64,000 nucleotides of DNA from a candidate division WOR-3 bacterium (GCA_965649205.1 CBFGJV010000013.1:1-64000); one strand, 5' to 3'. Shown: positions 1 through 16,477, counted from the first letter of the stretch. Notes: generated from the sequence alone by a model not told the origin. Made by a program: numbers and translations.

Positions 1-1
1 C

Positions 2-193
2 TACCGCTGGTACGCAAGAGAGCTGGGTCGGCTTTTCCGAACTAAGTTCGGCCCGGACCTGGCGATGAACCTGGAGCTGGTTCTGCGCACGTGGCGGGCC
101 AACGGTCTGGAGCTGAACACGATGCAGTTCCTCATCACGCTCATCTACGGCAAGCTGAAACTGGCCGCAGGCGAGAACGGAGGCGGACAATGA
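2..193 (+). CDS. Partial (5'-truncated by window edge) small helical protein, paralog A of the SIRV2-MCP-like array
   Basis: Open frame from nt 2: YRWYARELGRLFRTKFGPDLAMNLELVLRTWRANGLELNTMQFLITLIYG...GQ*. TGA 191-193 overlaps the next ATG (ATGA). Shares the Y-x-x-[FY]-[AG]...[WY]-x3-GL motif with the three downstream ORFs. Not in the ORF track. Confidence 0.75.
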   Translation, partial: YRWYARELGRLFRTKFGPDLAMNLELVLRTWRANGLELNTMQFLITLIYGKLKLAAGENGGGQ

Positions 194-459
194 AGGAGCA
201 CAGAGTGCAGCAGATTTCCAGACGGCTGGACAGTATGGTGGATCAGGTTCTGGGTAGAGAGAAGAAAAGGCGCAGGGCCTATCGGGCATTTGCTGAGGAG
301 ATGCTTTTGGCCGTGCGCCGTGGGGCGGAGAGGTTCGACGAGCGGGCCGGTAACATACTGGTCAAGTATCGCAACCGCGGTTTGTCGGTGGAGCTGCTCT
401 GGTTGGTGGGCCGTGCGGTGCTGGAAGGATTCGCCGGAGCAAAGGAAAAGGGGAAGTAG
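190..459 (+). CDS. Small helical protein, paralog B of the SIRV2-MCP-like array (89 aa)
   Basis: ATG 190 is coupled to the upstream stop. Motif AYRAFAEEM...VKYRNRGLSVELL. Stop abuts the next ATG at 460. Confidence 0.7.
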   Translation: MKEHRVQQISRRLDSMVDQVLGREKKRRRAYRAFAEEMLLAVRRGAERFDERAGNILVKYRNRGLSVELLWLVGRAVLEGFAGAKEKGK

Positions 460-813
460 ATGGCTCGGAGTCTGGAACGAGCCTGTCGGCACTACCATAT
501 GTCGCTCTCATCCGGCACATCCAAACGCTGGGATGGTGATATGGAGGCCCAGGTGCGGCGCTACCGCCAGGGTATGGAGCTTGTCCGCATGGCCGAGGCC
601 CGGGTGCGGCGGGTGGTGCTGGCGCGGGAAGGAAACGCTGCGCGCCTGTCGTGCTATGCGAACTTCGGCCGCCGTCTTGTCGGCCTGGCCCGAAGATACG
701 CGGGCAAAACCCTTGCCCTGCAGTGCAGGCTGGCGGTTGAACTGTGGGAAGCCAAGGGGTTGTCCCGCGAAGTCCTAGAAGAGGTTTGTCATGAGCTGCT
801 CCACCTTGGGTAA
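460..813 (+). CDS. Small helical basic protein, paralog C of the SIRV2-MCP-like array (117 aa)
   Basis: Motif CYANFGRRL...AGKTLA...ELWEAKGLSREVLEEV, colinear with paralog D. Confidence 0.75.
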   Translation: MARSLERACRHYHMSLSSGTSKRWDGDMEAQVRRYRQGMELVRMAEARVRRVVLAREGNAARLSCYANFGRRLVGLARRYAGKTLALQCRLAVELWEAKGLSREVLEEVCHELLHLG

Positions 814-822
814 AGACGATTC

Positions 823-909
823 GGCGGGTGCCGGCGCGGCAGTGCCTGCCCTGGCCCGGCCAGGTACGCCGGCATCCGCCCGCGGTCTTGCTGTCTGCCG
901 CAGGAGACC
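823..909 (+). other. Structured intergenic RNA element (branched stem plus second hairpin)
   Basis: A 14-bp stem 823-836/867-880 (one G-U) encloses two short hairpins (838-850, 850-864). A second hairpin is closed by GGTCT 884-888/AGACC 905-909. Confidence 0.55.
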
Positions 910-935
910 AGCCTACGTGAAAGGAGGTGATAGCA

Positions 936-1301
936 ATGGATCCGATAAAGAGAGTTGCGAAGTGGAATGCGAAATACGACTCGACTCGGCTGAAGAACGA
1001 CATCGACAAGATGCGGCCGGATATGCTCGCAAACGCAACCGCGGCATTCCCGCTGATCTATGCCATGGAGCAGCAGGTCAAGCAGGTACTGGACGCGGAA
1101 GGCGTGAGCATCATCACCTACCCGTTCTACCTCAACTTCGGACGCGAGATGTGGCACCTGCAGCGAATCAATCTCTCTGGTGAGTCACTGGCGGTTGAGG
1201 CTGCCACCTTGATCGGCAAGTGGGTGGCGAGAGGTCTCTCTCAGTCAGTGCTGGAGAGGATCCGGACCCAGGTGTTCAACATCGGTGCGCCGAGTCCGTA
1301 G
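936..1301 (+). CDS. SIRV2/Adnaviria major-capsid-protein-like protein, paralog D (121 aa)
   Basis: Strong SD AAGGAGGTG at 921-929, ATG 936. RVAKWNAKY...P-x4-N-x5-P...VKQVLDAEGV...YLNFG...RINLSGESL...VLERI resembles rudiviral MCP as recalled (RYAKWQAKF...VSAVLTQYGI...YQGFG...RIGSGPAL...VLDAV). Confidence 0.75.
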   Translation: MDPIKRVAKWNAKYDSTRLKNDIDKMRPDMLANATAAFPLIYAMEQQVKQVLDAEGVSIITYPFYLNFGREMWHLQRINLSGESLAVEAATLIGKWVARGLSQSVLERIRTQVFNIGAPSP

Positions 1302-1320
1302 TCGCTGTTGCGCAGTAAAG

Positions 1321-1362
1321 CTCCGGCCCCGCCTCAAGGCAGGGCCGGAGTGATTTTTCTTC
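1321..1362 (+). terminator. Rho-independent terminator after the MCP-like operon
   Basis: CTCCGGCCC-cGCC-TCAA-GGCa-GGGCCGGAG stem followed by TGATTTTTCTT, between convergent genes. Confidence 0.75.
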
Positions 1363-1368
1363 TGTGCG

Positions 1369-3414
1369 TCAGTTGCCGGCGGATAGCACCAGTTTGGTCC
1401 AGTCAGAGGAGCTTTCCGCAGCGCAGCAGAAGTAAACGCCGGGAGGAAGCGGTTTGCCCGTCTGGCTGCGACCGTCCCAGACAGTTGCGCCCTGAGCGAT
1501 GAGTTGTCGCACCAGCCGGCCGCTGTTGTCGTAAATGCGGAGCAGGGTTGGTTTCGTGCTGCCCGGAGCTGGGGAAATGGTGGTGGTGTGAGTGAAGGGG
1601 TTGGGTCGGGCCGTAAGCCGGGCTGGACAGGCTGGAGTCTTAGACTGGTTGCCGATTCCTACCTGCGGCGGGTTGTGGAAGCCGGAGATTTTGATGATGG
1701 TGTTGTCGTGGCCGCCGGCAGTGGGAGCGGTTACCCAGTAGGAGCCGTCGCGTGGGTCGTAGGCGATGCCGCGCAGGTTCCAGACCGGAGCGGCGAATTT
1801 GTAGCTGTTGAGGATGGAGAAGGTGACGCGGTCTATTTCGTAGAGCAGGCAGCTGTCCAGAACGGTGCCGCTGGTGTCGTTCCAGATGTATATGTTGAGG
1901 AGCGAGGGTGGGTTGATAGCTACACCCTGATCCAGAGCCAGGCAGCGGCTGGCAAGTCTGCCCGTGCTTTTCGGGTGGTACACGGCGCGGATGAAGTTGC
2001 CGCGGTTGTCGTAGATGAAAATGCGCTGTTGTCCGGCGGTGGTAAGGCGGCGGTCGGTGATGTAGAGCCTGCCTTCTGCCGGGTTTTCGACTAGACCGTA
2101 GGGGAATTCTACGGGTGAAATGGAGAAGTCGCGCAGGACAGCACCAGTGACAGCGTCCAGTTTGTACACCTTCTTACTCTTGTTGGCGAGGACCCAGAAG
2201 GTGTTGTCGTAGGCACAGTAGTGAATGTCGGTGCAGGAGTCTTCGGGCGTGGGAAGAGCGCGGCGGAAGGTGAGCAGGCTGTCGGCGCTGTAGGCGTATA
2301 TGCTGTTGGTGAGCAGGTGGGTGCAGTACACGTTGTCGTCCTGCGGGTTGTAGGTGATGCCGCAAATCTCCGGGCTGGCCGGCATACCTACACAGGGTTT
2401 GGGCCCCCACAGGCGCGTGCCGCCAGGTAGTCCGACGGTGAGGGCGAAGACAAAGGTCCATTCCCGGTCCCGGTTTTCTGAACGCACCAGGAGGGTGCAG
2501 GGAACCTGCGTGCCAGGGTCAATGGTGCCTAGAGCCGTGGCGGCAAAGGGGTCTGTGTGGTTGGTGCGGGTTCCCTGGCGGGGGATGTTGCCGAAGAATG
2601 CTTCGGAGTCACTGATGACAAAGTGGCGATGTCCGGAGCGGAGAATAGCCGATACGTCCTGTGCATCCGCGCCCAGGTTTTTCAGGGTGATGAGCAGTTT
2701 GCCACTTTCGCCGGGATCAAAGCGACCGTTGGCGTTGCCGCCGGGCGGGCTGTCTATTACCGTGTGGGACTGTCTGATGATGTAGGGGGCCTGAGATTCG
2801 TCTCTCAGGGAGATGTCGTCGGCGAAGACCTTCGCCGTAGTGGCACAGCCCCCTCAACCTGACCGGCCGTTGCCGGCTGCCTCTAGGCGGATGTTTATTT
2901 TGGCTACTTTGGCAGGGTCAATACCGGGCAGGTTGGTGAGTTCGTCGGCCAAAAGGAATTCGTAGCGTTCCCAGTTGGTGCTGGGCGCCTGAATGACGTG
3001 TTGAGTGGAGGTGTTCTGGGGCGTATAGGCGTAGGCCCGGTAAATCATGGTGCTGCCCAGATGGTTGTCGGCCGAGTCCAGATACTGCAGGATGATACTG
3101 GCGATGGCATAGTAACCCGCCACGCCCGCGGTTGTGGCTTCCAGTTTGGCCGAGGCAGAGAATCTTACCAGAGGACCGGGTACGTTGACTGTCTGGTCAA
3201 GCCGCGTGTAGGAAGCGTAGTACTGGTATAGATACACTTCCAAGTCTGGGTCAGAAGGGTCATAGGTGGGGTCCAGAGTGACGGTGGAGGTGCCGCCTTC
3301 GTTGCTTCTCGTCCAGTACTGGAGAGAGTCTTCGAAGCCACCGTTTCTGACCAGTTCCTGACCGAGGCAGATTGTCAGGAGGGCGCAGAAGGCGAGAAGA
3401 CAAATTTTTTTCAC
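1369..3414 (-). CDS. Secreted multidomain protein (signal peptide, CBM-like jelly roll, Ig-like domain, beta-propeller, FlgD/T9SS-like C-terminal domain) with in-frame TGA; putative selenoprotein, 681 aa, Sec187
   Basis: Track ORFs 2854-3429 and 1369-2487 are in the same frame and TGA 2856-2854 is the only stop between them. Context G-R-S-G-*-G-G-C-A-T-T-A-K-V-F-A-D-D-I-S-L. GTG start 3414 after SD GAGGAGG. C-terminus PNPF...IYDNSGRLVR...WDGR...PGVYF. Confidence 0.7.
2808..2853 (-). promoter_or_regulatory. Bacterial SECIS-like hairpin directly 3' of the in-frame UGA
   Basis: mRNA: UGA-GGGGGCUGUGCCACUA-CGGCGAA-GGUC-UUCGCCG-ACGACAUCUCCC. Perfect 7-bp apical stem 16 nt after UGA, loop starting with G, and a possible lower stem GGGGG/CUCCC. 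Confidence 0.65.
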
Positions 3415-3434
3415 AAGTCCTCCTCTCATTAGTT

Positions 3435-3462
3435 ATTCTATGGTGGCTGCCGAGGCTGTCAA
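3435..3462 (-). promoter_or_regulatory. sigma70-type promoter of the putative selenoprotein gene
   Basis: Minus strand TTGACA-N16-TAGAAT. Confidence 0.6.
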
Positions 3463-3488
3463 GGTGTCTGTCCAGCAGCGGTCGGTGC

Positions 3489-3516
3489 TTGACTTCAGAG
3501 TGGGTGCTTCTATAGT
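3489..3516 (+). promoter_or_regulatory. sigma70-type promoter of smc (probably leaderless mRNA)
   Basis: TTGACT-N16-TATAGT, with the GTG start 10 nt after the end of the -10. Confidence 0.55.
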
Positions 3517-3525
3517 TAGGCCCAA

Positions 3526-6500
3526 GTGTACATAAAAGAACTGCAGCTTACCGGTTTCAAGTCTTTTCAGGAGAAAACTACGCTGCGTCTGTCGCCCGGT
3601 ATGAACGCCATCATCGGGCCGAACGGATGCGGCAAGACGAATATCCTGGATGCTCTGCGCTGGGTGCTGGGCGAGCAATCGTTCAGCCTTCTGCGTTGTG
3701 GCAAGAATGAGGATCTGATTTTTGGCGGGACCGCAGAAGTGCCGCCGGTGAATTATGCGGATGTGAAGCTGGTTCTGGAAAACAATGAGTTGCCGCAGTA
3801 TCCCACCGAGATTGAGATAAGACGACGGTATTTCCGCACCGGCGAGAGCGAGTATTACCTGAATCGGCAACCCTGCCGCCAGAAGGATATTCAGGAGGTA
3901 TTCCTGGCTTCTGGCATCGGCACCAAGGCTTATTCCATTTTTGACCTGCGGCAGATGCGGGAGATTATCGCCGGCAATATCCGCAAGATGTTTGAGGAAG
4001 CTTCCACTCTGGCCAAGTATCAGGAGGCGAAGGCAGATTGTGAGCGCAAGCTGGCGCTGACGGATGCCGACCTTACCCGGCTGAGCGATATTGTCGCAGA
4101 ACGGGAGCGGGTGGTGCGAAGTCTGCGCTACCAGCTGGGTAAGCAGCGTTCCTGGGAGAAGCTGAAGGAAGAGGAGAAGAGCTATCGGCTGGTGGAGTTG
4201 AAGGCGGAGTATATTTCCGTTTGTCAAGAGCTGGAGCGGCTGGCGCGGGAAAGGGAGAGTCTGGAGCAGGCGGATGCCGAGCGTCTGGTGGAAATCAATC
4301 GGCTGGAGGAGGCGTTGCACCAGCAAAGGGGTAGACTCAGAGAAGAGCAGAGTTTGAAGGACGAACTGGCTGACCGGGCGCGGGCGCTGCGTACTTATCT
4401 GAGTGAACTGGAGGGGAAGGAGCTGATAGGAAACGAAAGGGTGCGTTCTCTGCGAATGCAGGCGGAGCAGGCGGAGGAAGAGGCCGGGCGGCTGGCCCGC
4501 AGTCTGCAGGAGACAGAGCCGGTTGCGGCTTCTGTGCTGGAACGTCTGGCCGAAGCCACTGCACTGCAGAGCAAGCTGGAGGCGACACTGCAGGAGGCGC
4601 AGGAAGAGACGCGGGCAGCGGAAACCAGGCTTTATACCTACCGCACGCACGAACAGTCTCAGCGTCAGACGCTTCTGGCTTTGCTGCAGAAGCAGCAGGA
4701 ACTGGAGCGCAGGTTGGCGTACGAGGAAGCGGTCAGACAGAATACCGCCGAGGCGGAGGCAAGGGCTAAAGCTGAGTTTGAAGAGCTGGAGCAGCGACTG
4801 GCAGAGTGTCGCAAGGAAGAGGAAGAAGCAGTGTCGAACGCAGCAGCGGCAGGCGCCCGGCTGGAGCAGATGCGTCAGGAAGTTTCTGGCGTGGAAGCCG
4901 AGCTGGCAAAGGTGGCCGCCGAGCTGAAGCAGGTGAGCGAGGAGCTTGTCCGGGCGCGCGAGAAAAGAAACAGACTGGAGCGGGAGCTGGCCGCATTGGG
5001 AGCGGCTGCGCCTGACCGCAGCGCACAGTGCCGTAGTGTTCTGGGTGATGCGTTGTCGGGAGAGGTGAGCAGTTTTCTTTCCGTGACGCCGGGCTGGGAG
5101 CTGGCCTGCGAGGCAGCGCTGTATCCGCTGTTGGAGTTTCAGGTGACAAAAGAAGAGCCGAGTGTAGCGGTCTTGAGGCAATTGAGCGAAGCCGGTCTGG
5201 AAGCTTGGTGTGGTTTTGTCGTGGCCGGCTCTGAGGATACCTCCAGTACGTCGGCTGAGGCGATAGGAGTAAGACTGTCGCAGTATGTGCAGGTGCAGCA
5301 GGGCGCGCCGGCTTTGCTACGCAATCTTCTAGATTCTTTTATTGTGGTGGATGGCGAAGACGACGGCTGGAAGCCGGGCCGTAATGTGGTGAGCCGGGAG
5401 GGCTGGGCAGTTTACGCTGACGGTCGGTTCGTGGTGGCTGCCGCCAGGAATGGTCCGTTGCGGGTGCAGGCGAGTCGTACGCAGAAGACGACAGAGTTGC
5501 AGGAAGCGGTGGTGCAGGTGGAGGCGCTGGAGACCAGACGTCAGGCGCTGGAGACCAAAAGAACGGAACTGGAGCGGCAGCAGGAGGAGGCGCGGGCTTT
5601 GGTGGAGGAGGCGGGAGAGAAGAAGGCTCTGGCAGACGCCCGGCGGGAAGCGGCTACTGCCCGACGGCAGGAACTGGAGCGGGAACAGGCCAGAGTCCGG
5701 CAGGATACGGTCCGGAGCAGGGGGGAGAGCGAGCGGCAGAGTCTGGAGTCTGTGCAGGAGGAACTGGAGGCGGTACGGAGACAGGTGGCGGAGCAGACAG
5801 ATTTTGTGCACAAGGCCGAGAGCGCAGTGCGAGAGCAGGAGCAGATAGCCCGTGCGGCTCTGGAACGGGCGGCAGAGCAACTGGCCGCGCTTTCCGAGCA
5901 GAAGCAAAGAGTTTCCCGACTAGAGACGGAGGTTGCCTATGTGCGACGAGAACTGCAGGAGCGGCGCAATCGGCTGGCGGAATTGCAACGAACCGCGGAG
6001 AAGCTGCGGCAGGAAGCAGAGAGTCTGGAGCAGGAAACGGCAGGACTGAAGCCGGAACTGGAAAGAGTGCGGGAAGAGCTGGCCAGTCTGGAGACAAAAA
6101 TAGGCGAGCTGAAGGTGACAGATCTGACTCTGGCCGAGGAAGAGCTGGAGAAAAATCTGACAGAGCTGCGTAAGGTGCGCGAACAGGGGCAGACTCTTCT
6201 GATGGAGCTGCGTCTGCGCGAGTATGAGCTGAATACGCGGCGCCAGGCCATAGAGCAGGAAGCGCGGGGAGAGTATGGAACTGACATAGCTTCTTTTGAG
6301 TCTTCCGAGGTGGAGGACGTGGTGAACCGCTTGGCACAGGTGAGGCAAAGGCTGGCTGCTCTGGGGGCGGTGAATCCCCTGGCGCGGGAAGAATACGAGC
6401 GGGAGCGAAAGGACCTGGAGTTACTCATCAGCCAGCGCAATGATGTGCTGGCGGCAAAGGAGAATCTGCTTCTGTCTCTTAAGGAGATTGACCGACACGC

Positions 6501-6990
6501 CCGGGACAGGTTTCTGGAAACATACAACCAGGTGCGGACCCATTTCCGGGACATTTTCCGTCAGATGTTTCTGGAAGGCGAGGCAGACCTGGTGCTGGTG
6601 GATGAATCCCGGCCACTGGAGTCAGAGGTGGCGATAATCGCCAGACCCAAGGGTAAGATGCCCAAGCGGTTGGAGCAACTCTCAGATGGCGAGAAGGCGC
6701 TTCTGGCCGTGTCTTTGCTGTTTGCGTTCTATCGGGTGAAGCCCGCACCCTTCTGTTTTCTGGACGAGATTGACGCTCCGCTGGACGACGCCAACACCGC
6801 CCGCTTTGCTGATTATCTGAAACAACTGTCCACTACCACGCAGGTTATAGTTATTACGCACAACCGGCTGACAGTAGAGAGGGCTGACGCCCTATTTGGA
6901 GTGACGGCAGAACAACCCGGGGTCTCCAAGCTGATTTCTGTCAGTCTGGCAAATTACCGCAGCTCGCCCGCGGCTGTGGCGGTGAGTTAG
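3526..6990 (+). CDS. smc: Chromosome segregation protein SMC
   Basis: N-terminal GFKSF...GPNGCGKTN Walker A, long coiled coils, hinge, C-terminal LSDGEK signature and FCFLDEIDAPLD Walker B. Confidence 0.95.
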   Translation: MYIKELQLTGFKSFQEKTTLRLSPGMNAIIGPNGCGKTNILDALRWVLGEQSFSLLRCGKNEDLIFGGTAEVPPVNYADVKLVLENNELPQYPTEIEIRRRYFRTGESEYYLNRQPCRQKDIQEVFLASGIGTKAYSIFDLRQMREIIAGNIRKMFEEASTLAKYQEAKADCERKLALTDADLTRLSDIVAERERVVRSLRYQLGKQRSWEKLKEEEKSYRLVELKAEYISVCQELERLARERESLEQADAERLVEINRLEEALHQQRGRLREEQSLKDELADRARALRTYLSELEGKELIGNERVRSLRMQAEQAEEEAGRLARSLQETEPVAASVLERLAEATALQSKLEATLQEAQEETRAAETRLYTYRTHEQSQRQTLLALLQKQQELERRLAYEEAVRQNTAEAEARAKAEFEELEQRLAECRKEEEEAVSNAAAAGARLEQMRQEVSGVEAELAKVAAELKQVSEELVRAREKRNRLERELAALGAAAPDRSAQCRSVLGDALSGEVSSFLSVTPGWELACEAALYPLLEFQVTKEEPSVAVLRQLSEAGLEAWCGFVVAGSEDTSSTSAEAIGVRLSQYVQVQQGAPALLRNLLDSFIVVDGEDDGWKPGRNVVSREGWAVYADGRFVVAAARNGPLRVQASRTQKTTELQEAVVQVEALETRRQALETKRTELERQQEEARALVEEAGEKKALADARREAATARRQELEREQARVRQDTVRSRGESERQSLESVQEELEAVRRQVAEQTDFVHKAESAVREQEQIARAALERAAEQLAALSEQKQRVSRLETEVAYVRRELQERRNRLAELQRTAEKLRQEAESLEQETAGLKPELERVREELASLETKIGELKVTDLTLAEEELEKNLTELRKVREQGQTLLMELRLREYELNTRRQAIEQEARGEYGTDIASFESSEVEDVVNRLAQVRQRLAALGAVNPLAREEYERERKDLELLISQRNDVLAAKENLLLSLKEIDRHARDRFLETYNQVRTHFRDIFRQMFLEGEADLVLVDESRPLESEVAIIARPKGKMPKRLEQLSDGEKALLAVSLLFAFYRVKPAPFCFLDEIDAPLDDANTARFADYLKQLSTTTQVIVITHNRLTVERADALFGVTAEQPGVSKLISVSLANYRSSPAAVAVS

Positions 6991-7008: not shown

Positions 7009-7881
7009 GTGAAGTTCGGATTCCATAAACTCAAGGAAGGTCTGAGTAAGACAGCGGCAGTGTTCAGGCGGCTGCTTACCGCCAAGGACGAGGTTGAGTT
7101 TGAGGAGCTGCTGCTGGGTGCGGATGTGGGAGTGGAGGCAACCAGATTACTGACAGACAGGGTACTGCGGGCCGCGGACCGTCGGGCAGCACTGGAACAG
7201 GAAATTGTGGCTATCCTGAAGAAGGGAGCGGAACGGACAGGGGGGACGCTGGCCGCCAGTCAGGTACGTCCGCAGGTGATAATGATTGTGGGGGTGAACG
7301 GCTCCGGAAAGACAACCACGGTGGGAAAGTTGTGCTTCCATTTTGCCCGGCAGGGAAGAAAGGTGGTGGTAGCCGCGGCTGATACTTACCGGGATGCGGC
7401 AGCCGAACAGTTGGCCATCTGGGCGGCTCGGGCCGGGGCAGAAATAGTTTCCTCTACTAAGGGACAGGATGCAGCCGCCGTGGCCTACGACGCTATTGTC
7501 AAGGCGGTGAGCAAGGAAATGGATTTGGTGCTGGTGGATACTGCCGGACGTCTGCATACCCGCAAGGACCTGATGGCCGAGCTGGAGAAAATACGCCGGG
7601 TGTGCGCCAAGGCCAGACCGCAGGCGCCGGACGAGACCTGGTTGGTGCTGGATGCCACGGTGGGCCAGAACGGGCTGCGACAGGCCCGAGTGTTTCACGA
7701 ACAGCTTTCTCTTACCGGGGTGGTGGTGGCCAAGCTCGACGGCACTGCCCGCGGAGGCATTCTCATCCCGATTGCGCTGGAGCTGGGATTGCCGGTGAAG
7801 TTTGTGGGTACGGGCGAGGACATTGAGGATTTGGAGCCGTTTGACCCGGAAGCATTTGCCCGCCTGCTACTAGAACCGTAG
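7009..7881 (+). CDS. ftsY: Signal recognition particle receptor FtsY
   Basis: GVNGSGKTTT, DTAGRLHT and KLDGTARGG motifs; follows smc. Confidence 0.95.
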   Translation: MKFGFHKLKEGLSKTAAVFRRLLTAKDEVEFEELLLGADVGVEATRLLTDRVLRAADRRAALEQEIVAILKKGAERTGGTLAASQVRPQVIMIVGVNGSGKTTTVGKLCFHFARQGRKVVVAAADTYRDAAAEQLAIWAARAGAEIVSSTKGQDAAAVAYDAIVKAVSKEMDLVLVDTAGRLHTRKDLMAELEKIRRVCAKARPQAPDETWLVLDATVGQNGLRQARVFHEQLSLTGVVVAKLDGTARGGILIPIALELGLPVKFVGTGEDIEDLEPFDPEAFARLLLEP

Positions 7882-8349: not shown

Positions 8350-9048
8350 GTGGAACAGAAGCAGAAGGCGGTCGAGGAATCGGGCGAGAGTAAAACCGCG
8401 GCAGCCGGCAAGGTTCAGCCCCAAGAGGCAAAAGAAAAGCCTCGCGCAACCGGCACGGCTCTGGCAGTGGCGCCGCAGGCACTGCCGGTGCCGGACGAGG
8501 AACTGGTACGCCGGGTACAGGCCGGGAATACGGAGGCTTTTGAAGAGTTGGTGCGCCGGTATGAGAGAAAAGTCTACAATGTGATTTACCGGCTGGTAGG
8601 AAATGAACAGGACGCCAAGGAAGTGTTGCAGGACACATTCCTGCGGGCCTACCGTTTTATCGGCAAGTTTCAGTTCAAGTCAGGCTTTTTTACCTGGCTC
8701 TACCGGATTGCAACCAATACCAGCCTTACCCGGCTGCGGCAACGGAAAACGCCAGTGATGGTTTCTCTGGACGAGCCGGTGGGTGAAGAGGGAGACCTGC
8801 CTCTGGAGATTCCGGATTACAAGTATAATCCAGAGCAGATGATGAAGCAGCGGGAGTTGCGTATGGCTCTGAAGAAGGCGGTTGATTCCCTTCCTCCGGA
8901 TTATCGCTCGGTGGTGGTGCTACGCGACCTGGAGGGACTGAGTAACGAAGAGGTGGGGAAGATTCTTAAGCTGTCGGTGCCGGCTGTGAAGTCCCGTCTG
9001 CACCGGGGCCGGCTGGCTTTACGGGAAATGCTGGCCGATTATCTGTGA
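8350..9048 (+). CDS. ECF RNA polymerase sigma factor (RpoE/SigW-like)
   Basis: Region 2 (AFEELVRRY...FFTWLYRIATN) and region 4 (LRDLEGLSNEEV...VKSRLHRGR). Confidence 0.92.
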   Translation: MEQKQKAVEESGESKTAAAGKVQPQEAKEKPRATGTALAVAPQALPVPDEELVRRVQAGNTEAFEELVRRYERKVYNVIYRLVGNEQDAKEVLQDTFLRAYRFIGKFQFKSGFFTWLYRIATNTSLTRLRQRKTPVMVSLDEPVGEEGDLPLEIPDYKYNPEQMMKQRELRMALKKAVDSLPPDYRSVVVLRDLEGLSNEEVGKILKLSVPAVKSRLHRGRLALREMLADYL

Positions 9049-9099
9049 GAATGAACCGGAATTCAGAAATGGTGAGTCAAAAACTTACAGGGAGAAGTA

Positions 9100-9375
9100 A
9101 TGAATTCCCCGGATAAGTCCTTGTCTTCCTGCTCAGAGTGTGAACAGCTGTTCGTCCTGGTGAATGAATATCTGGACGGCGAAGTAAGTGTTCAGGCGCG
9201 GCAGGAGTTGATGGCGCATGTTACCTCCTGTCAGGATTGTGCCCGGATGTTGTGGAAGATGGAACGGCTTGTCTGCTGCTGCCGGGCAGAACCAGGAGAA
9301 TCGGTGCCCGAAGCTGTACACCGGGAGCTCTGGCAGGTATTGCTCAGGGAATTACATTCGCAGGCAGAAGAGTAG
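9100..9375 (+). CDS. Zinc-binding anti-sigma factor (zf-HC2/ZAS)
   Basis: EYLDGE...HVTSCQDC (HxxxCxxC), directly downstream of the ECF sigma. Confidence 0.85.
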   Translation: MNSPDKSLSSCSECEQLFVLVNEYLDGEVSVQARQELMAHVTSCQDCARMLWKMERLVCCCRAEPGESVPEAVHRELWQVLLRELHSQAEE

Positions 9376-9384
9376 AATCTTCAC

Positions 9385-9423
9385 AGACGGAGAAGAGGCT
9401 GCCGTATTCTCCGTCTTTTTCTT
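9385..9423 (+). terminator. Rho-independent terminator
   Basis: AGACGGAGAA...TTCTCCGTCT stem followed by a T-run. Confidence 0.6.
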
Positions 9424-9436
9424 CTGGGGACCTTAG

Positions 9437-10528
9437 TTGACCAAGATGCGGATTGCAGTGGCAATAAGCGGGGGGGTGGATTCGGCGGTTGCAGCCCTGT
9501 TGCTGCGACAACAGGGATACGAAGTCATAGGTGTGACTATGCTACTTGCCGAGGAAGGACTGGGTGGTCCAGCCTCCGGTGAAGTCAGACACCCGCTCAG
9601 ATACGCCCGGCGGGTGGCAGCAGAGCTGGGTATTCCTCACCACACGCTTGACTTCCGGGAACAGATGGAGCAGGAGGTGATTTTCGATTTCTGCGCGCAG
9701 TACGCGCGTGGGCGTACGCCAAATCCGTGTGTCAGGTGCAACGAACGGCTGAAGTTTCGACTGCTTCTGCAACAAGTCAGGCAGTTGGGGGCAGAGAAGT
9801 TGGCTACCGGACATTATGCGCGCATCTGCCAGGACGGAAGCGGAAGATGGCAACTACTGCGGGCAAAAGATAGAGCCAAGGACCAGTCATATTTTCTTTA
9901 TCGGGTGACGCAAGAGCAGCTGGAGCAATTGGTAATGCCGTTGGGAGATTTGAGCAAGCAGGAAGTAAGAGAGTTGGCCGGGAGGTTTGGATTGCCGGTA
10001 GCCGAGAAAGAGGAAAGCCAGGAAGTATGTTTTGTGCCGGACGGTGACCGGCCCGCGTTTCTGAGACAACGAAGGCCAGAACTTATCCGGGCGGGTAAGA
10101 TAGTTGATACCAGAGGCAGAGTACTGGGTGAGCACGAGGGCATTGCTTGTTATACGGTAGGCCAGCGCAAGGGACTGGGAATAGCGCTGGGCGGACGGAG
10201 GTATATTGTACGACTGAAACCGGAAACGAACGAAGTGGTTGTGGGCACCTACGAAGAGGCGCTTTCCGCTACGGCGGAACTGGAGGAGGTACACTGGATT
10301 TCTACAGAACCGGCGAGTGCGATTGAGGTTATGGTGAAGATACGCAGTCAGCATGAAGGGGGGATGGCCATAGTAGAACCACAGGGAAGAGAGGCGAGAG
10401 TGAGTTTCAGAGAGCCGCAGTTTGCGGTGACAGCCGGTCAGTCTGCGGTGTTCTATCAGGGCGATGTGGTACTGGGCGGAGGAATAATAAGAGCAGCGAA
10501 AAGCAAGATTGCTAACCAGGAGGTATGA
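9437..10528 (+). CDS. mnmA: tRNA 2-thiouridine(34) synthase MnmA
   Basis: SGGVDS, TPNPCVRCN, ATGHYA, KDQSYFL, ESQEVCF and GQSAVFY motifs. Confidence 0.95.
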   Translation: MTKMRIAVAISGGVDSAVAALLLRQQGYEVIGVTMLLAEEGLGGPASGEVRHPLRYARRVAAELGIPHHTLDFREQMEQEVIFDFCAQYARGRTPNPCVRCNERLKFRLLLQQVRQLGAEKLATGHYARICQDGSGRWQLLRAKDRAKDQSYFLYRVTQEQLEQLVMPLGDLSKQEVRELAGRFGLPVAEKEESQEVCFVPDGDRPAFLRQRRPELIRAGKIVDTRGRVLGEHEGIACYTVGQRKGLGIALGGRRYIVRLKPETNEVVVGTYEEALSATAELEEVHWISTEPASAIEVMVKIRSQHEGGMAIVEPQGREARVSFREPQFAVTAGQSAVFYQGDVVLGGGIIRAAKSKIANQEV

Positions 10529-12099
10529 TGTTTGCAGTGCTGCTGGCACTAATTTCTGTAAACGTAAGTTCAAGCATCGATTCGGTGGTGGTGTATCCTC
10601 ACTTGGTGCAGGTTGTACGTACGGCCCGGGTTTCTGTTTCGGGTCCGGGCGAACTGGTGTTTACTGGGCTGTCTGGTGCTCTGGATGATAATACGGTACG
10701 GATCAGTGCTCCCGGGCTGGGCGTGGGTGAAGTCCAGGTGCGGCGGGGTTATCTGGCTGAGCCGACACCTGCCGTGAAAAAGCTGGAACAGAAGGTAAAA
10801 GACCTGGAGGATAAGCTCAAGAAGCTCAGAGACGAAGCAGATATCGTCAAAGCGAAGCTAGAGTTCCTGCAATCCGTCAAGCTGGGAACGCCGGAACTGA
10901 TAGCCAAGGAATTGCAGCAGGGCAAGGTGTCGGTTCAGTCCTGGCGCGAGGCGCTTTCTTTTCTGGCCGAGGAGATGGCCCGGGCTATGGCGCGGCAGGT
11001 TGGACTTGACCGGGAACAGGAGGAAGTAAGAAAGGAGCTGGAAGCCGCCCGACAGGAATATAACGACGCCCGAGCGCAGATGGAGAATCGCAAGGAGGTG
11101 AGGCTGGACTACAGCGCAACTGCAGGTACCTACGAGGTACGTTTGTCTTATGCTGTGCCTTATGCGGCGAGCTGGTCGCCTTACTACGAACTGCGCGCTC
11201 AGCCGGATAGGGATAAGGTGGCTTTATCCTACTTCTGCAAGCTTGCCCAGAAGACCGGGGAAGACTGGGAGCAGGTGAAGGTAGTTATTTCCACCTCTCG
11301 GCCTGAATTCGGTGTTACGTTGCCGGCTCCAGAACCCTGGTATGTTTCTTTGATTGAAACTTGGGACCGTCCCACATACGACGGAGCTATGGCGACTGAG
11401 GCCATGCCTGCTCCGGGTGTGGCGATGAAGGCTGAGGTTCCGGGGCGCCAGTATGAACAGGTTGAAGCAGTGGAAACAGGCATTTCACTGCAGTATGTCA
11501 TACCTGGTCGTGTTAGTCTGAAGTCAGGAGAACCGGCCAAGAAACTTCTCTTGCGAGAAGCGAGCTTGGCAGCCGAATACAGCTACTTCAGTCTGCCGCG
11601 TAGCCGACCCCAGGCTTTTCTGCAGGGCAAACTGGTCAACACCACGCCATTCGTATTTCTGGCAGGCGAAGCCGGCACTTATGTGGGAGACGAATATACC
11701 GGATCCAGCTATCTGCCTGCGGTCGCACCGGGCGAGACCACCGAGCTTAGCTTCGGTACCGATGAACGGGTGAAGGTTACGCGGGAACTGGTGAAGAGCT
11801 TCAAGTCCAGAGGCGGACTTTTTTCCCGGACGGAGAAGGTTCAATTCACTTACAAAACCACCGTGGAAAACTACTTGCCCAAGACCATTCGTATAGAGGT
11901 GATGGAACAGGTGCCGGTGTCACAGCAGAGCGAGGTGAAGGTCACGGTGAACAGAGTGGAACCAAAGTTCCTTGAACAGGATAGGGACAATGGCACCTAT
12001 ACCTGGAAGCCGGAATTGGAAAGCAAAGCCAAGTTCGTGATAGACTTGGACTTTACTGTGGAATATCCTGCTGGCAAACGAATACAGGGACTATACTAG
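10525..12099 (+). CDS. DUF4140/DUF4139 (MuiA-like) protein
   Basis: IDSVVVYP...VVR N-terminus, coiled coil, ASWSPYYELR, QKTGEDW...ISTSRP, LSFGTDERV. Confidence 0.8.
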   Translation: MMFAVLLALISVNVSSSIDSVVVYPHLVQVVRTARVSVSGPGELVFTGLSGALDDNTVRISAPGLGVGEVQVRRGYLAEPTPAVKKLEQKVKDLEDKLKKLRDEADIVKAKLEFLQSVKLGTPELIAKELQQGKVSVQSWREALSFLAEEMARAMARQVGLDREQEEVRKELEAARQEYNDARAQMENRKEVRLDYSATAGTYEVRLSYAVPYAASWSPYYELRAQPDRDKVALSYFCKLAQKTGEDWEQVKVVISTSRPEFGVTLPAPEPWYVSLIETWDRPTYDGAMATEAMPAPGVAMKAEVPGRQYEQVEAVETGISLQYVIPGRVSLKSGEPAKKLLLREASLAAEYSYFSLPRSRPQAFLQGKLVNTTPFVFLAGEAGTYVGDEYTGSSYLPAVAPGETTELSFGTDERVKVTRELVKSFKSRGGLFSRTEKVQFTYKTTVENYLPKTIRIEVMEQVPVSQQSEVKVTVNRVEPKFLEQDRDNGTYTWKPELESKAKFVIDLDFTVEYPAGKRIQGLY

Positions 12100-12131
12100 A
12101 CAGAATTAGGCGAAAATGGGCTAGGCTTCTG

Positions 12132-12992
12132 CTACCTTTGTACTACTAGCTTCTTCGTCTCACTCCAGTCGTCGGCTTCTAATTTTACCAGATATCTGCC
12201 TGCGGGAACCTGGCTCAGATCGATTTGCACCACGCCGTTTTTTTCGGCCATTTCTTGCATGGTCCTCACCGGCCGACCAAGCTCGTCGAAAATGGTGATG
12301 GTAACGGGTCCTGGCCGGGGCAGGTTGTAGCGGACCGTAGCTGAACGGGTTGTGATCAGATTGGGCGATATGATGAAACTCGGCCGTACGACTAGCGGAG
12401 GTTTGGTTACGACTCCGGTGTTCGGCAGTATCGTAATTGGAAAACCAGTTCCTACCCCTACGCTGTATTGTCGCAGCGGCACACCTAAGTAGTTGAAGCT
12501 CTCGTGCACATGGTAATCTATCGAGTAATCTCCAGGAGGCATGTTGCGCGGGACATCAACCTCTATGGAACAGGTAAAGGCTCCGGCATCCGCATGATTA
12601 TAGAGTTCATCGGCATAGCTGAACCAGGCGTATCCCGGCGGCGGAGGAACGCTGTCATTCATGTGCGTATTGGCTTCTTCGTCCTGCTGGGTTTGTACAA
12701 AGCGCGGACAATCATCGGTGTAGTTGAAAATAGCCTGGACCACGGACATCCCTTGATCAGCCTGAGGCAGAGTTTTGGAAAAGATGAAGCCGCAGGGATT
12801 GTAGACGCTTGCCCCTTCCCAGGTGCATTCCATCACCACCCAGTATCGGCTACCCTGCATTGCTTGGGAAGGCTGGGCAATAGTTCCTCCAGTGAGGTAG
12901 CACGCCACGATGAGCAACCCGACCAGCAAAATAGTCAGAGTCACTCGTATCGGTACCCGCAGCTTCCGCGGCCAGCGAACATTCGTAATCAT
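12132..12992 (-). CDS. Secreted protein with T9SS-type-A/FlgD-like C-terminal domain
   Basis: SD GGAGG, N-terminal hydrophobic segment, C-terminus ISPN...ITIFDELGRPVR...PAGRYLVKL...KKLVVQR. Confidence 0.75.
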   Translation of the reverse strand: MITNVRWPRKLRVPIRVTLTILLVGLLIVACYLTGGTIAQPSQAMQGSRYWVVMECTWEGASVYNPCGFIFSKTLPQADQGMSVVQAIFNYTDDCPRFVQTQQDEEANTHMNDSVPPPPGYAWFSYADELYNHADAGAFTCSIEVDVPRNMPPGDYSIDYHVHESFNYLGVPLRQYSVGVGTGFPITILPNTGVVTKPPLVVRPSFIISPNLITTRSATVRYNLPRPGPVTITIFDELGRPVRTMQEMAEKNGVVQIDLSQVPAGRYLVKLEADDWSETKKLVVQR

Positions 12993-13308
12993 CTTACCTC
13001 CAATCTGCGCGAGAAGCGCTTCTTGCTGCAGTAGCTGGTTTCCTGCGTCTTCGCTGTCCCCTTCTTTTTCTGTCTAATACATAAGCGCGGAAACGATATC
13101 TGTCAAGTGGCAGGCAAAACTTGTCAAAAGCACAGCTGGTAGAGATTCGGGAAAAGAATTAGTTTATGTGGTCTATGGGGCCTCCAGATGGCGCAACCTT
13201 GCGTACCGAATGCATGCAAGGTTCAGTACGGTGGTGTCATTGACGAGGCAGTTGACTATGACTGTTGCTATTGCTTTTGCCACCACGTCGTACCACCCTT
13301 GCCTTAAA

Positions 13309-13336
13309 TTGACACTTAGAAGAAATTTGCTATGCT
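13309..13336 (+). promoter_or_regulatory. his operon promoter
   Basis: TTGACA-N16-TATGCT with TG extension. Confidence 0.65.
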
Positions 13337-13344
13337 TTCTCCCG

Positions 13345-13440
13345 ATGATATATAGCTTCGGTGTTCTTCTCGGACTGCATAAGTGTAATCATAAGCATAC
13401 CACCGGTGGCTCGGGGCCGGTGCAGAGCCGTATGAAGTAG
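13345..13440 (+). CDS. Putative his leader peptide (31 aa, HKCNHKH)
   Basis: MIYSFGVLLGLHKCNHKHTTGGSGPVQSRMK*. Three CAT codons, located between the promoter and the attenuator hairpin. Confidence 0.65.
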   Translation: MIYSFGVLLGLHKCNHKHTTGGSGPVQSRMK

Positions 13441-13491
13441 AAGCACCGAGTAACCCGAAGCCACCGTCCCGCAAGGGGCGGTTTTGCTTTT
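13404..13491 (+). terminator. his attenuator (terminator/antiterminator)
   Basis: Terminator ACCGTCCC-GCAA-GGGGCGGT-TTTGCTTTT (13463-13491). CGGTGGCTCGGG (13404-13415) can pair with CCCGAAGCCACCG (13454-13466), overlapping the terminator 5' arm. Confidence 0.7.
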
Positions 13492-13507
13492 GTAAGGAAG
13501 AAGAATT

Positions 13508-14566
13508 GTGAAGAAAGATACTTCAGAACCGATTGCTCCGAATCAGACCGTAGGCTTATCGCCCCACGTGGTCAGTCGCCGTTGGCGAGCGCAGGAAATA
13601 ATGCGCCGCACCTTTGAGAAGTTCGGCTATCGTCCGCTGGAAACCCCGGCTCTGTACCGAGCCGAAGCTGTAGCTCCGGGGTATGGAACCGGAATCCAGG
13701 GATTGATGTGTACATTGCGGGACGACAGTGGACAAGAGTTGACCCTGGCCTATGACCTTACGGTGCCACTGGCCCGCTATGTGGCGGCCAACGCCAAGCG
13801 TCTGTCTTTGCCTTTCAAACGCTATCAGGTGCAAAGCGTCTGGAGGCCTCTATCCGGACGGCCGGGCCATTTCCGCGAGTTTCATCGCTGCGATGTGGAT
13901 ATAATCGGCTCTGCTCATCTGGCCTGCGACGCGGAAATATGCCGGGTTGTCGCCGATACGTTGTCTGCGTTGGAACTGGAACCTTTTGTTATCTGTTACA
14001 ATCTGGCAGACCCGGCCCAGGTGGACACGGCTGAGTTTCTTTCCTGTTGTGAGCGGTTGGGTTTAGCCAAAGAGAGACTAAGGCGGGACAGCGGGTTGGT
14101 GCGGGATCTGGGCTATTACACCGGTCTTGTCTTCGCGGTGGAATTGGTCGGTAAGGAAAGTCCGGTTTGCGTGGGAGGGCGCTACACCATCGCTCTGAGC
14201 GGACAGCGTGTTACCGGGGTGGGAGTTTCCTTTGACTTGGACCGGATTGTAACCGAGCTTGCTCACCGCAAAAGGGAACGCCACACCAGTGTCAATGTGC
14301 TGGTGATGTCGCATCCGCAGCGGGAAAAGCAGACGTTGGAATTGTATCGGGAATTACTGGATTCTGATGTTTCTGCCAGTTGCTACTTCGAGGCAGTTTC
14401 GCTTTCCCGTCAGCTCAGCTATGCCCGCGAGCAGCACATCCCCTTTGCTGCTGTCCCGAATCCGGACGTGGGCAACGTTACCCTCATCCATGTTCCTACC
14501 GGTCGCAGAAAGAGTATCCCCCGAGGTCAGGTGGCAGAATATCTGCGAGGTTTCTATGATACATAA
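13508..14566 (+). CDS. HisRS-derived protein, probable ATP phosphoribosyltransferase regulatory subunit (HisZ-like) or degenerate HisRS
   Basis: YDLTVPLARYVA, PFKRYQ..VWR, FREF..CDVDIIG, YYTGLVF, GGRY and a C-terminal anticodon-binding-like domain. First gene of the his operon. Confidence 0.75.
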   Translation: MKKDTSEPIAPNQTVGLSPHVVSRRWRAQEIMRRTFEKFGYRPLETPALYRAEAVAPGYGTGIQGLMCTLRDDSGQELTLAYDLTVPLARYVAANAKRLSLPFKRYQVQSVWRPLSGRPGHFREFHRCDVDIIGSAHLACDAEICRVVADTLSALELEPFVICYNLADPAQVDTAEFLSCCERLGLAKERLRRDSGLVRDLGYYTGLVFAVELVGKESPVCVGGRYTIALSGQRVTGVGVSFDLDRIVTELAHRKRERHTSVNVLVMSHPQREKQTLELYRELLDSDVSASCYFEAVSLSRQLSYAREQHIPFAAVPNPDVGNVTLIHVPTGRRKSIPRGQVAEYLRGFYDT

Positions 14567-15185
14567 TGGCGTCAGAATTGCCCTGCAGCGCGACGGCCGA
14601 CTGCGGGCCGGAAGCCTGGCGCTCCTGGCACGTTGCGGTCTGATTCCCCGGCCAGAATCAGAAAGGGCCCTGGTCGTACCCTGTGGAAAAGGCGTCTCCC
14701 TGCTTTATGTCCGCCATCGCGACATCCCCCGCTACGTGGAACTGGGCGCAGCAGACCTGGGTGTCGTGGGAGCCGACCTGCTGGCTGAACAGAAAACCCG
14801 TTGCCAACCGGCCGCCAGACTGGGTTTTGGCCGCTGCCGTCTGGTTATTGCCGTGCCCGCGTCTTCGCCTGTCCGTCAGCCGTCCGAACTGGAAGGCGAA
14901 CGTATCGCCACCTCCTACCCGATTACCCTGCGCCGGTTCTTGGCCCGCCAGCATATCTCTGCCTCAGTCATTGAGCTGTCCGGTTCGGTTGAAGTTGCCC
15001 CGGCCCTGGGTCTGGCTGACGCAATCTGTGACATAGTGGAGACCGGTAACACACTTCGGGCAAACAACCTTGTTCCGGTAGCGGAAGTGGCAGAATGGGA
15101 AGCGGTGCTGATAAGAAACCCGGGAGCGGAAAACCTGGCTGTAAGTGAATGGGTCGCAAAGATAGCCCGCGAGGTGCAGATATGA
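14556..15185 (+). CDS. hisG: ATP phosphoribosyltransferase, lacking the C-terminal regulatory domain
   Basis: RIALQRDGRL, DIPRYVE.G.ADLGVVG, RIATSYP, GSVEVAP.LGLADAICDIVETGNTL; 209 aa. Confidence 0.92.
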   Translation: MIHNGVRIALQRDGRLRAGSLALLARCGLIPRPESERALVVPCGKGVSLLYVRHRDIPRYVELGAADLGVVGADLLAEQKTRCQPAARLGFGRCRLVIAVPASSPVRQPSELEGERIATSYPITLRRFLARQHISASVIELSGSVEVAPALGLADAICDIVETGNTLRANNLVPVAEVAEWEAVLIRNPGAENLAVSEWVAKIAREVQI

Positions 15186-16477
15186 AACTGTACGATATCC
15201 GCCAGAGCGAACCTGCCGAGCTGGAGCATCTATGCCGGCGCCAAACCGGCAATATGGAGTCTGCGCTGCAAGTCGCCCGTAGAATACTGAGTGAGGTAAG
15301 ACACAGAGGGGAAGAAGCTCTGCGCGAGTATACAAGAACTTTTGACCGGGTAGAGCTGAAAGAGCTGGCTGTATCCCAGGACGAAATCGCAACCGCCGTG
15401 TCCCGCCTGTCGGATGAGCTTCTGTCCGCAATGAAACAGGCGGCGGACAACATTGAGCAGTTTCACCGCTCTCAGATGACAATCTTTCCCCGGCTGGAAA
15501 CAACTCCCGGGGTTTTATGCTGGACAGAAACCCGGCCCATAGAAAAAGTAGGGCTGTATGTGCCGGGAGGCAGCGCCAGCCTTGTTTCCACTCTGCTGAT
15601 GCTGGCGATTCCGGCCCGGCTGGCCGGCTGCCCTACCGTAGTTGTTGTCACTCCGCCAGGACCAGAAGGTAAGATAGCTGACGCTCTGCTTGCCGCCTGT
15701 CATCTGTGTGGCGTGGAAACTGTTTTCCGCGTCGGCGGAGCCCAAGCCATTGCCGCTCTGGCCTATGGCCAGGCCGGTCTGCCCAAGGTGGACAAGATAT
15801 TCGGCCCGGGCAATCGCTATGTGACAGCGGCCAAATTGCTGGTGTCTGCAGACCCTGCCGGCGCCGCAATAGATATGGCCGCCGGGCCCAGCGAAGCGCT
15901 AATCATCGCCGACCGCTTCTGCCGGCCCGACTTTGTCGCCGCCGACCTATTGGCTCAGGCAGAGCACGACCCAGATGCCGCTGTGGTACTGGTATCAGAC
16001 AGAAGTGAAGTTCTCCAGGCGGTAGAAGAAGAACTAGAACAGCAGTTACAGACTTTGCCCCGTGTCGACATCTGTCGTCGCTCTCTGTCCCATGGCCTGC
16101 TGCTTTTGGCCCGAGATCTGTTTCAAGCCCTAGAGTTCTCCAACCGCTATGCACCCGAACACCTCATACTGAATGTCGCCGACTGGCAGGAATTTGTTCC
16201 TCTCATTCGCAATGCCGGCTCGGTGTTTCTCGGTCCCTATGCCTGCGAGGCTGCCGGCGACTATGCCAGCGGCACCAACCACTGCTTGCCTACTTCCGGC
16301 TGGGCAAGGGCGGTATCTGGCCTTGCCGTCGCTGATTTTCAGAAACGTATTACCTTTCAGACTTTGTCAGCCGCTGGCGCACGCCAGCTCGCACCAACCG
16401 TGTGTCAACTGGCTGCTGCCGAAGGTCTGGAAGCTCATCGCCGGGCTATGGCCTGGCGGGCAGGAGGAGATGTATGA
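15182..16477 (+). CDS. hisD: Histidinol dehydrogenase
   Basis: GLYVPGG, GGAQAIAALAYG, KIFGPGN, AGPSE, QAEHD, APEHL, GDYASGTNH. Confidence 0.95.
   Translation: MKLYDIRQSEPAELEHLCRRQTGNMESALQVARRILSEVRHRGEEALREYTRTFDRVELKELAVSQDEIATAVSRLSDELLSAMKQAADNIEQFHRSQMTIFPRLETTPGVLCWTETRPIEKVGLYVPGGSASLVSTLLMLAIPARLAGCPTVVVVTPPGPEGKIADALLAACHLCGVETVFRVGGAQAIAALAYGQAGLPKVDKIFGPGNRYVTAAKLLVSADPAGAAIDMAAGPSEALIIADRFCRPDFVAADLLAQAEHDPDAAVVLVSDRSEVLQAVEEELEQQLQTLPRVDICRRSLSHGLLLLARDLFQALEFSNRYAPEHLILNVADWQEFVPLIRNAGSVFLGPYACEAAGDYASGTNHCLPTSGWARAVSGLAVADFQKRITFQTLSAAGARQLAPTVCQLAAAEGLEAHRRAMAWRAGGDV

Follow-up and report, generated by a model that had tools for sequence, protein, structure and literature searches.

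The question raised by this locus, which lies in a 64,000-nucleotide window (the whole stretch of DNA analysed) from a candidate division WOR-3 bacterium, is whether a TGA between two annotated ORFs ends a gene or is read as selenocysteine (Sec). The two ORFs occupy one minus-strand frame running from 3429/3414 to 1369, with a single internal TGA at 2856-2854 and a terminal TGA at 1371-1369; counted from the GTG at 3414, the internal TGA is codon 187 of 682. A preliminary description of this DNA had joined the ORFs in one frame and had held that the 122 codons 3' of the TGA (2853-2488) offer no start for a separate gene. Both points were confirmed, as this interval is without ATG, GTG or TTG and also without a stop codon. 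Our comparisons indicate that the conserved UGA is almost certainly read as Sec, joining the two annotated ORFs in one protein. The features of the gene and its surroundings are collected in Table 1.

Table 1. Coordinates of features at the selenoprotein locus, in window positions.
Feature	Position	Strand	Basis
Single gene, 681 aa, Sec at codon 187, terminal TGA	1369..3414	-	Frame and sequence
Sigma70-like promoter, TTGACA-16-TAGAAT	3435..3462	-	11/12 positions; consensus match only
Ribosome-binding site AGGAGG, 4 nt 5' of GTG 3414	3419..3424	-	Sequence
Predicted signal peptide, 18 aa	3361..3414	-	Sequence; similar leaders in homologues
Sec-bearing CBM-like beta-sandwich domain	2800..3360	-	AlphaFold pLDDT 97.4, fold searches
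In-frame UGA, presumed selenocysteine	2854..2856	-	Frame, conservation, contigs from public runs
Cys at +3 (UGGC), presumed Sec partner in the subfamily of the window protein	2845..2847	-	Sequence; motif classes
SECIS-type hairpin, 7 bp, GGUC loop, overlapping last-strand codons (AKVFA)	2820..2837	-	Conservation, folding
Ig-like module, common to C25-peptidase (gingipain-like) cargo proteins	2428..2799	-	Homologue searches; Ig label presumed
Repeat region, probable beta-propeller	1675..2412	-	Sequence repeats only
T9SS type A C-terminal sorting-like domain	1390..1605	-	TIGR04183 25.9 bits (cut-off 23); PF18962 26.5 (cut-off 27)
13-bp GC-rich hairpin, likely terminator	1321..1350	.	-30.2 kcal/mol, z -5.1

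A sequencing error at the TGA could be ruled out. Contigs from three public runs, belonging to two studies, cover the TGA and the hairpin downstream of it with no listed difference there, and the same contigs do differ from the window at nearby positions. The lookup of public runs found no RNA run holding the stretch, and Rfam gave no relevant match within window positions 1-4500. When the read-through protein was used as the query in a word-based homologue search, relatives of the Ig region only were returned because the databases split the gene. A single-sequence model of the C-terminal 476 residues, the repeat region included, reached a pLDDT of 38.8, too low to be informative; the repeats make a beta-propeller probable in this part of the protein. 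The sorting-like domain that had been placed downstream of the TGA was recovered with TIGR04183, while PF18962 fell 0.5 bit under its cut-off. The GC-rich hairpin beyond the end of the gene separates it from a convergent ORF at 927-1301 and was not called by the terminator scan.

The source genome, which is 97.95% complete, encodes the machinery for Sec incorporation in full. Its selA, selB and selD scored over their cut-offs and its tRNA-Sec gene (selC) scored 73 bits; selD contains an in-frame TGA of its own, with an AGUUG-loop hairpin 22 nt downstream. UGA is the commonest stop codon in this genome, ending 472 of 1107 long ORFs, and a genome-wide reassignment of UGA (codes 4 or 25) is thereby ruled out. 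Only one Trp tRNA was found, with the anticodon CCA, and this likewise speaks against a reading of UGA as Trp or Gly. Such a reassignment belongs, together with a true stop in a split gene, a pseudogene or an error, to an alternative to which we give very little credence. In its favor, public gene calls end at the TGA in most representatives (see below), and two family-bearing genomes appear to lack the machinery: none of selA, selB, selC and selD was found in G058 (76% complete), and a search of G191 (96% complete) for selA, selB and selD found none of the three. Over 251 genomes, the family and selB occur together in 85, the family alone in 6, selB alone in 19 and neither in 141; selA or selD is present in four of the six genomes with the family only. 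Two genomes, G014 (92%) and G039 (98%), are without selA, selB and the family, all of which their genus-mates have, and each gives a weak tRNA-Sec match just over the cut-off (50.7 and 49.2 bits, respectively). In eight genomes, picked by eye from lists with no background for comparison, a sel gene is found about 8 kb or less from a gene of the family. As a separate observation, a selB match of a relative (G059:C176:2155-2823) has an internal TGA, which may reflect a broken gene or an assembly error.

The conservation of the TGA bears most directly on whether it is a true stop. Profile A1 for the N-terminal domain, comprising 57 sequences, matched 91 of the 251 genomes sampled in this phylum, which is WOR-3 according to the labels of homologues, with at most nine matches per genome. 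Among the matches listed in the phylum, beyond which there were 71 more, 149 of 150 contain one TGA. In a second phylum, to which a record with the label Ca. Eisenbacteria belongs, the profile matched 10 of 151 genomes, and all 25 matches contain one TGA; each of the ten loci fetched has Cys-TGA followed, at 20 nt, by the same hairpin. The TGA falls in the same loop in 118 of 121 distinct full domains with a mean identity of 40%, these domains being mostly top matches from fetched loci plus three TGA-less ones that were noticed. The equivalent of position 187 was never TAA or TAG in the domains examined. A codon so fixed at one position across two phyla argues against a true stop, which would moreover cut off a core strand of the domain. 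The reading as a pseudogene was rejected on the conservation of the TGA in both phyla and the covariation of the hairpin. The public gene calls for 120 of 150 protein representatives stop exactly at the Sec loop, which is what one would expect if gene callers stop at UGA. It should be noted that these domains and genomes are related by kinship and are not independent, so the shuffle and Fisher figures given below overstate.

Replacement of Sec by Cys is rare in the family, and standard searches for Cys/Sec pairs would therefore miss it. A Cys in place of the UGA, or directly beside it, was seen in only one of the 121 domains (L063) and in five of the 150 representatives (P0022, P0073, P0075, P0156 and P0160). 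The distant homologues P0019, P0094 and P0145 have no Cys in the loop, from which it follows that the fold also works without selenium or sulfur there. One of them, P0019, is a 2727-aa kelch-repeat protein labelled as from a Thermoplasmata archaeon; it has three tandem copies of the domain with Cys-free loops, and a selenium-free form of the fold thus exists in archaea. The source genome itself holds a second family copy at C6:77680-78249 (+) (L056), with a UGGC motif, an imperfect hairpin of -6 kcal/mol and a different C-terminal half.

A perfect hairpin had been described 16 nt 3' of the TGA, and it is indeed there: CGGCGAA-GGTC-TTCGCCG spans 2837-2820, with its loop 23 nt from the TGA. We take its AGGUCU apex to resemble that of the element in E. 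coli fdhF, the prototype of bacterial SelB/SECIS selenoproteins. As a 20-nt piece, chosen after the fact, the hairpin has a folding energy of -10.8 kcal/mol and was equalled by none of 200 shuffles. In longer context it is not special, with a z of -0.75 for a 42-nt piece, and a 71-nt piece around it adopts a different structure (z -1.35). The source genome contains 327 GGTY-loop hairpins of at least 5 bp and 97 pairings of a TGA with a hairpin 14-33 nt apart; among the pairings listed, only that of the window links long frames on both sides (192 and 494 codons). Since the hairpin alone is common in the genome, it is its conservation that sets the one in the window above chance.

This conservation is extensive across the 118 TGA-containing domains. 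The distance from the UGA to the loop is 17 nt in 43 domains, 20 nt in 62, 23 nt in 11, and 26 and 41 nt in one each, the stem of the member at 41 nt being broken. The loop is GGUC in 109 domains, AGUU in five, GGUU in three and GGUG in one, and the six stem pairs are intact in 116, 118, 117, 118, 117 and 114 of the 118. At the variable pairs, A-U, G-C, C-G and U-A alternate, changing two residues at once and giving encoded variants such as AKVFA, AEVSA, ARVLA, AQVCA and AWVYA. The pairing observed at four variable pairs was matched by 0 of 2000 shuffles. Codon usage in the stem is skewed as well: GCG is used for Ala at 96 of 117 stem codons versus 353 of 1578 elsewhere, and GTC for Val at 109 of 118 versus 449 of 1258. 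On a quick tree of the residues before the Sec loop, from which the hairpin region was excluded, the stem-pair types require about 30 changes, and well-supported branches force at least 8 and at least 10 changes for the two commonest types. The stem is missing in two of the three TGA-less domains. From the compensatory pairs, the codon skew and the repeated switches on the tree, we conclude that the hairpin is kept by selection as an RNA structure, and its covariation is further evidence against a true stop. In the sections of PMC13188914 covered here, the bSECIS model has a loop of 3-9 nt with an early G, a stem of 4-16 bp, a spacing of 16-37 nt and an MFE of -7.5 or lower. The hairpin in the window fits this geometry with its GGUC loop, 7-bp stem, 23-nt spacing and -10.8 kcal/mol, and 113 of the 118 homologue hairpins reach -7.5 kcal/mol. 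The conditions that the preliminary description had named as refuting its reading (no Sec machinery, another residue at this position, an unconserved hairpin) were each checked, and all of these checks favored that reading.

To what kind of domain the presumed Sec belongs was addressed by structure prediction. AlphaFold on A1 gave an all-beta sandwich at a pLDDT of 97.4; Sec, for which the model has Cys, falls in the loop that connects the penultimate strand to the last. This confident model rules out a thioredoxin fold for the domain. The nearest folds are the CBM domain of a tailspike (5w6h; Z 15.2, rmsd 2.3 Å, 141 residues aligned), a porphyran CBM (8xmz; Z 13.4, 2.5 Å, 131 aligned) and the CBM16 structure 2zew (Z 12.6, 3.0 Å, 138 aligned), in keeping with the CBM-like assignment in the preliminary description. 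With CBM4/16/61 members (2zew, 8xmz, 2xom) and 5w6h taken together, the fold is the same at Z 11-15 and rmsd 2.3-3.2 Å, and the family likewise has NGxFE at its start and an aromatic residue close to the tip. The family differs from these CBMs by less than 20% identity and by its Sec/Cys loop, and no glycoside hydrolase domain was detected in the window protein. Pfam CBM_4_9 (PF02018) gave weak matches to 7 of the 57 members, with an E of 2.8e-4 at best and the window copy unmatched, and a PDB sequence search with the domain profile gave one weak partial match, to a module of 5x7o. When we call the domain lectin-type, we refer to the carbohydrate-binding-type fold of this model, sugars being candidate ligands.

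A reading that follows from the fold is that the protein is a lectin or adhesin whose real Sec attaches covalently, through an Se-S bond, to thiols or disulfides of particles, of substrates or of partner cells. The fold matches of Z 12.6-15.2 agree with it, as do the aromatic residue at position 84, beside the Sec site, in 107 of 118 domains and the occurrence of the domain as a modular, multi-copy, N-terminal unit on varied stalks. We nevertheless consider it distinctly unlikely in view of the low identity to solved CBMs, the sparse CBM_4_9 matches and an internal partner Cys that is almost always present, as would suit a pair that cycles more than an anchor used once.

The position of this Cys varies in a patterned way. 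Within the Sec loop the Cys may be at -1 or further downstream, and its presence there and at position ~83 is nearly mutually exclusive: the partner is in the Sec loop only in 53 of the 118 domains, in the adjacent loop only in 50, in both in seven and in neither in eight, and all eight of the latter have another loop Cys. In a set reduced to less than 55% identity the corresponding counts are 27, 12, 1 and 5, with a Fisher p of 2.4e-6 that is overstated by kinship. In a jelly-roll topology, the Sec loop and the adjacent Cys loop would meet at one tip. The exclusivity and this topology together suggest a Sec-Cys pair in which the Cys may have moved between the Sec loop and its neighbor. The UxxC motif given in the preliminary description stands for the window copy, which has UGGC, but not for the family. 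It is ruled out as the family motif because only 7 of 118 domains have UxxC versus 52 with Cys-Sec (CU), and most others have the Cys in the neighboring loop.

The prevalence of CU also speaks for a different role of a real Sec, namely a non-catalytic surface site that binds soft metals (Hg, Cu, Ag, Ni) for capture or detoxification. CU is the commonest motif in the 118 domains, Cys ends 87 of the 120 truncated representatives and CU occurs in 10 of 10 loci in the second phylum. An extra Cys or His is often present in the loop (CU-xGHC), and hot-spring metagenomes are the source of close strains. In Table 1 of PMC13188914, CU marks the metal-linked selenoproteins SaoL, HgcA and MbdU; the family shares its Cys-Sec with these and with SaoC and KCU-star, but differs from them in fold and location. 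On the other hand, many members have Sec and one Cys with no other conserved ligand nearby, and a reading by eye of the 45 largest clusters of neighboring genes revealed no conspicuous gene for metal transport or resistance. We regard the soft-metal site as unlikely, although it is the chief competitor of the redox reading.

The architecture of the family is that expected of exported proteins. A signal peptide precedes the Sec domain in the members examined, and the domain is followed by Ig-like and repeat modules with a sorting tail, by the tail alone or by nothing. The Ig region of the window protein is common to WOR-3 C25 peptidases, and SprA and PorV-like genes are present in the source genome. 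With T9SS type A cargo such as the gingipain-like C25 peptidases, the window protein shares a signal peptide, a Gln as the first residue of the predicted mature protein after the 18-aa leader, the Ig-like module and the sorting domain; it differs in having the Sec domain in the N-terminal slot. Judged on these features, the window protein is very probably exported to the surface via a T9SS-like system.

This arrangement allows a structural or regulatory role for Sec, in which the Se-S bond stays closed in sulfidic, reducing habitats or the display of the tail is tied to selenium supply. The last strand and the sorting tail would be lost without readthrough, leaving only a fragment that lacks both. 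Se-S bonds resist reduction more than S-S bonds do, which we count in support of this role as well. However, the short stand-alone forms, some of them lipoprotein-like, have Sec about 15-20 codons before their end and no tail to gate; since they keep Sec, it must matter in itself and not only for the tail. In addition, a buried structural bond would not be expected to have a partner Cys that shifts from one exposed loop to another, as it does here. A structural or regulatory Sec is thus quite improbable.

The preliminary description had envisaged other secreted proteins with a TGA and a hairpin, and four more exported UGA genes of other folds were found in the source genome. In five of its 135 sorting-tail-like matches the only signal peptide, as called by a crude hydrophobicity test, precedes an in-frame TGA: the window gene, its C6 paralogue, an FG-GAP protein, a Cys-TGA protein and a TlpA-like protein. 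A lipoprotein with an Omp28-like domain was a further TGA gene obtained from a de novo genome scan, which missed the C6 paralogue and gave many implausible candidates, so that the selenoproteome it yields is incomplete. The exported FG-GAP protein (C22:18852-20057 (+), L142:1353-2558) has a sorting tail and TGA-Cys (UC); its hairpin is conserved, and its TGA is kept in 43 of 46 matches from 30 of 61 genomes, the other three matches not spanning it. The exported Cys-TGA protein (C4:64583-65566 (+), L148:584-1567) has a sorting tail and no Pfam family, and its TGA is kept in 17 of 18 matches, also with a conserved hairpin. In both families the loops are mostly GGU and the spacing is similar. A TGA-less relative of the C4 domain is the second domain of many proteins of the CBM-like family. 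The exported TlpA/redoxin-type UxxC protein (C16:18813-20225 (+)) has a sorting tail and keeps its TGA in 29 of 33 relatives, a TGA-less form being present in G014, which is without selA and selB. The Omp28-like UxxC lipoprotein (C8:78268-79011 (-)) keeps its TGA in 15 of 31 relatives. The TlpA-like and Omp28-like proteins are probably members of known selenoprotein kinds. Family genes lie near such TGA genes in seven loci (Omp28-like in four, TlpA-like in one and FG-GAP in three); in L217 (G005:C1:2862000-2881999, 8765-15282), three exported TGA genes, CBM-like, TlpA-like and FG-GAP, fall within about 7 kb. The window protein has no neighboring redox gene.

We propose a model of a Sec-Cys redox center on an exported lectin-type domain. 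With hardly any doubt, SelB carrying tRNA-Sec would bind the downstream GGUC hairpin and insert Sec at codon 187. The signal peptide and the C-terminal sorting domain would then, in all likelihood, direct the protein to a T9SS-like translocon. Outside, Sec would probably form a reversible Se-S bond with a Cys of its own loop (CU, UxxC) or of the adjacent loop. For the last step we see an even chance that substrates docked at the tip of the sandwich undergo thiol-disulfide or persulfide exchange with the center, which would work together with exported UxxC proteins of thioredoxin fold whose genes are often close by. The chain as a whole, from recoding and export to the Sec-Cys pair and a redox center at the sandwich tip, is about as apt to be right as wrong.

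How this protein relates to known selenoproteins was examined by comparison with catalogues. It resembles the bacterial SelB/SECIS selenoproteins, as described in the part of PMC13188914 covered here, in its in-frame UGA, a hairpin located within the coding sequence whose small loop begins with G, and selABCD; it differs as an exported beta-sandwich protein rather than a cytoplasmic or periplasmic metabolic enzyme. With the UxxC thioredoxin-fold selenoproteins (Trx, Prx-like, redoxin, GOS_C NF045500) it shares UxxC in the window copy, and genomes with the family also encode exported Trx-fold proteins in TGA genes, which sometimes adjoin it. The family differs from them in being a beta-sandwich in which UxxC is scarce and the partner Cys shifts. 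NCBIfam selenoprotein models matched none of the 57 members, and no Pfam or NCBIfam family covers the Sec domain, which does not thereby exclude an unlisted family. Deng et al. 2026 reportedly put forward new selenoprotein candidates that are unvalidated. No CBM-fold, FG-GAP or T9SS-cargo family is among the 119 prokaryotic families in Table 1 of PMC13188914, an inventory of 2026, and Haft and Tolstoy 2025 or Deng et al. 2026 could still include the family. BSepDB (PMC13326102) and deep-Sep (PMC12013277) were covered in part, by term search, and the BSepDB family table may hold more. No literature was found on WOR-3 selenoproteins, on T9SS in WOR-3 or on UGA-encoded Sec in type IX secretion. 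Set against the catalogues checked, this is a real and apparently uncatalogued selenoprotein family, in agreement with the view in the preliminary description that it is unlike the known ones.

The recoding mechanism is that of the textbooks while its client is no textbook case: a multi-copy family in two phyla with Sec on a lectin-type fold and a type IX tail, stored in databases as truncated hypothetical proteins. These findings suggest selenium chemistry outside the cell in uncultured anaerobes. We tentatively extend the proposal, at somewhat less than an even chance, to a selenium-based redox coat in WOR-3 and some Eisenbacteria. The lectin-fold Sec domain would be a new class of selenoenzyme, and the type IX system would export it alongside FG-GAP propellers that also contain Sec, another uncatalogued domain with Cys-Sec, and partners of thioredoxin fold. 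Sec would be so indispensable here that upon loss of the machinery the family is dropped rather than switched to Cys. If this is true, exported Sec proteins would be a main reason why the lineage keeps selenocysteine. The more than 100 covarying SECIS hairpins are a natural series on how RNA structure constrains protein sequence, and the compact 187-residue domain makes its function directly testable.

The surroundings of the gene provided some additional observations. The convergent 124-aa ORF at 927-1301 (+) belongs to a family of 161 matches, of which the named ones are all from WOR-3. It resembles the capsid protein that wraps the DNA of filamentous viruses of archaea: the profile matches PDB 3j9x and 6wq0 (E ~3e-4), and 29 of 34 members of the family are recognized by Pfam Sulf_coat_C. 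An ORF at 190-459 (+) may be a weak paralogue of it (pairwise E 0.038). The portion of a 2026 preprint covered here still calls Adnaviria archaeal. A frame is open at the start of the contig, and these sequences make an Adnaviria-like provirus at the end of a bacterial contig possible. On the other side, about 110 bp from the selenoprotein gene and divergent from it, are SMC-like and FtsY-like genes at 3526-6990 and 7009-7881 (+), respectively; as identified by their sequence motifs, these neighbors are an ordinary housekeeping context.
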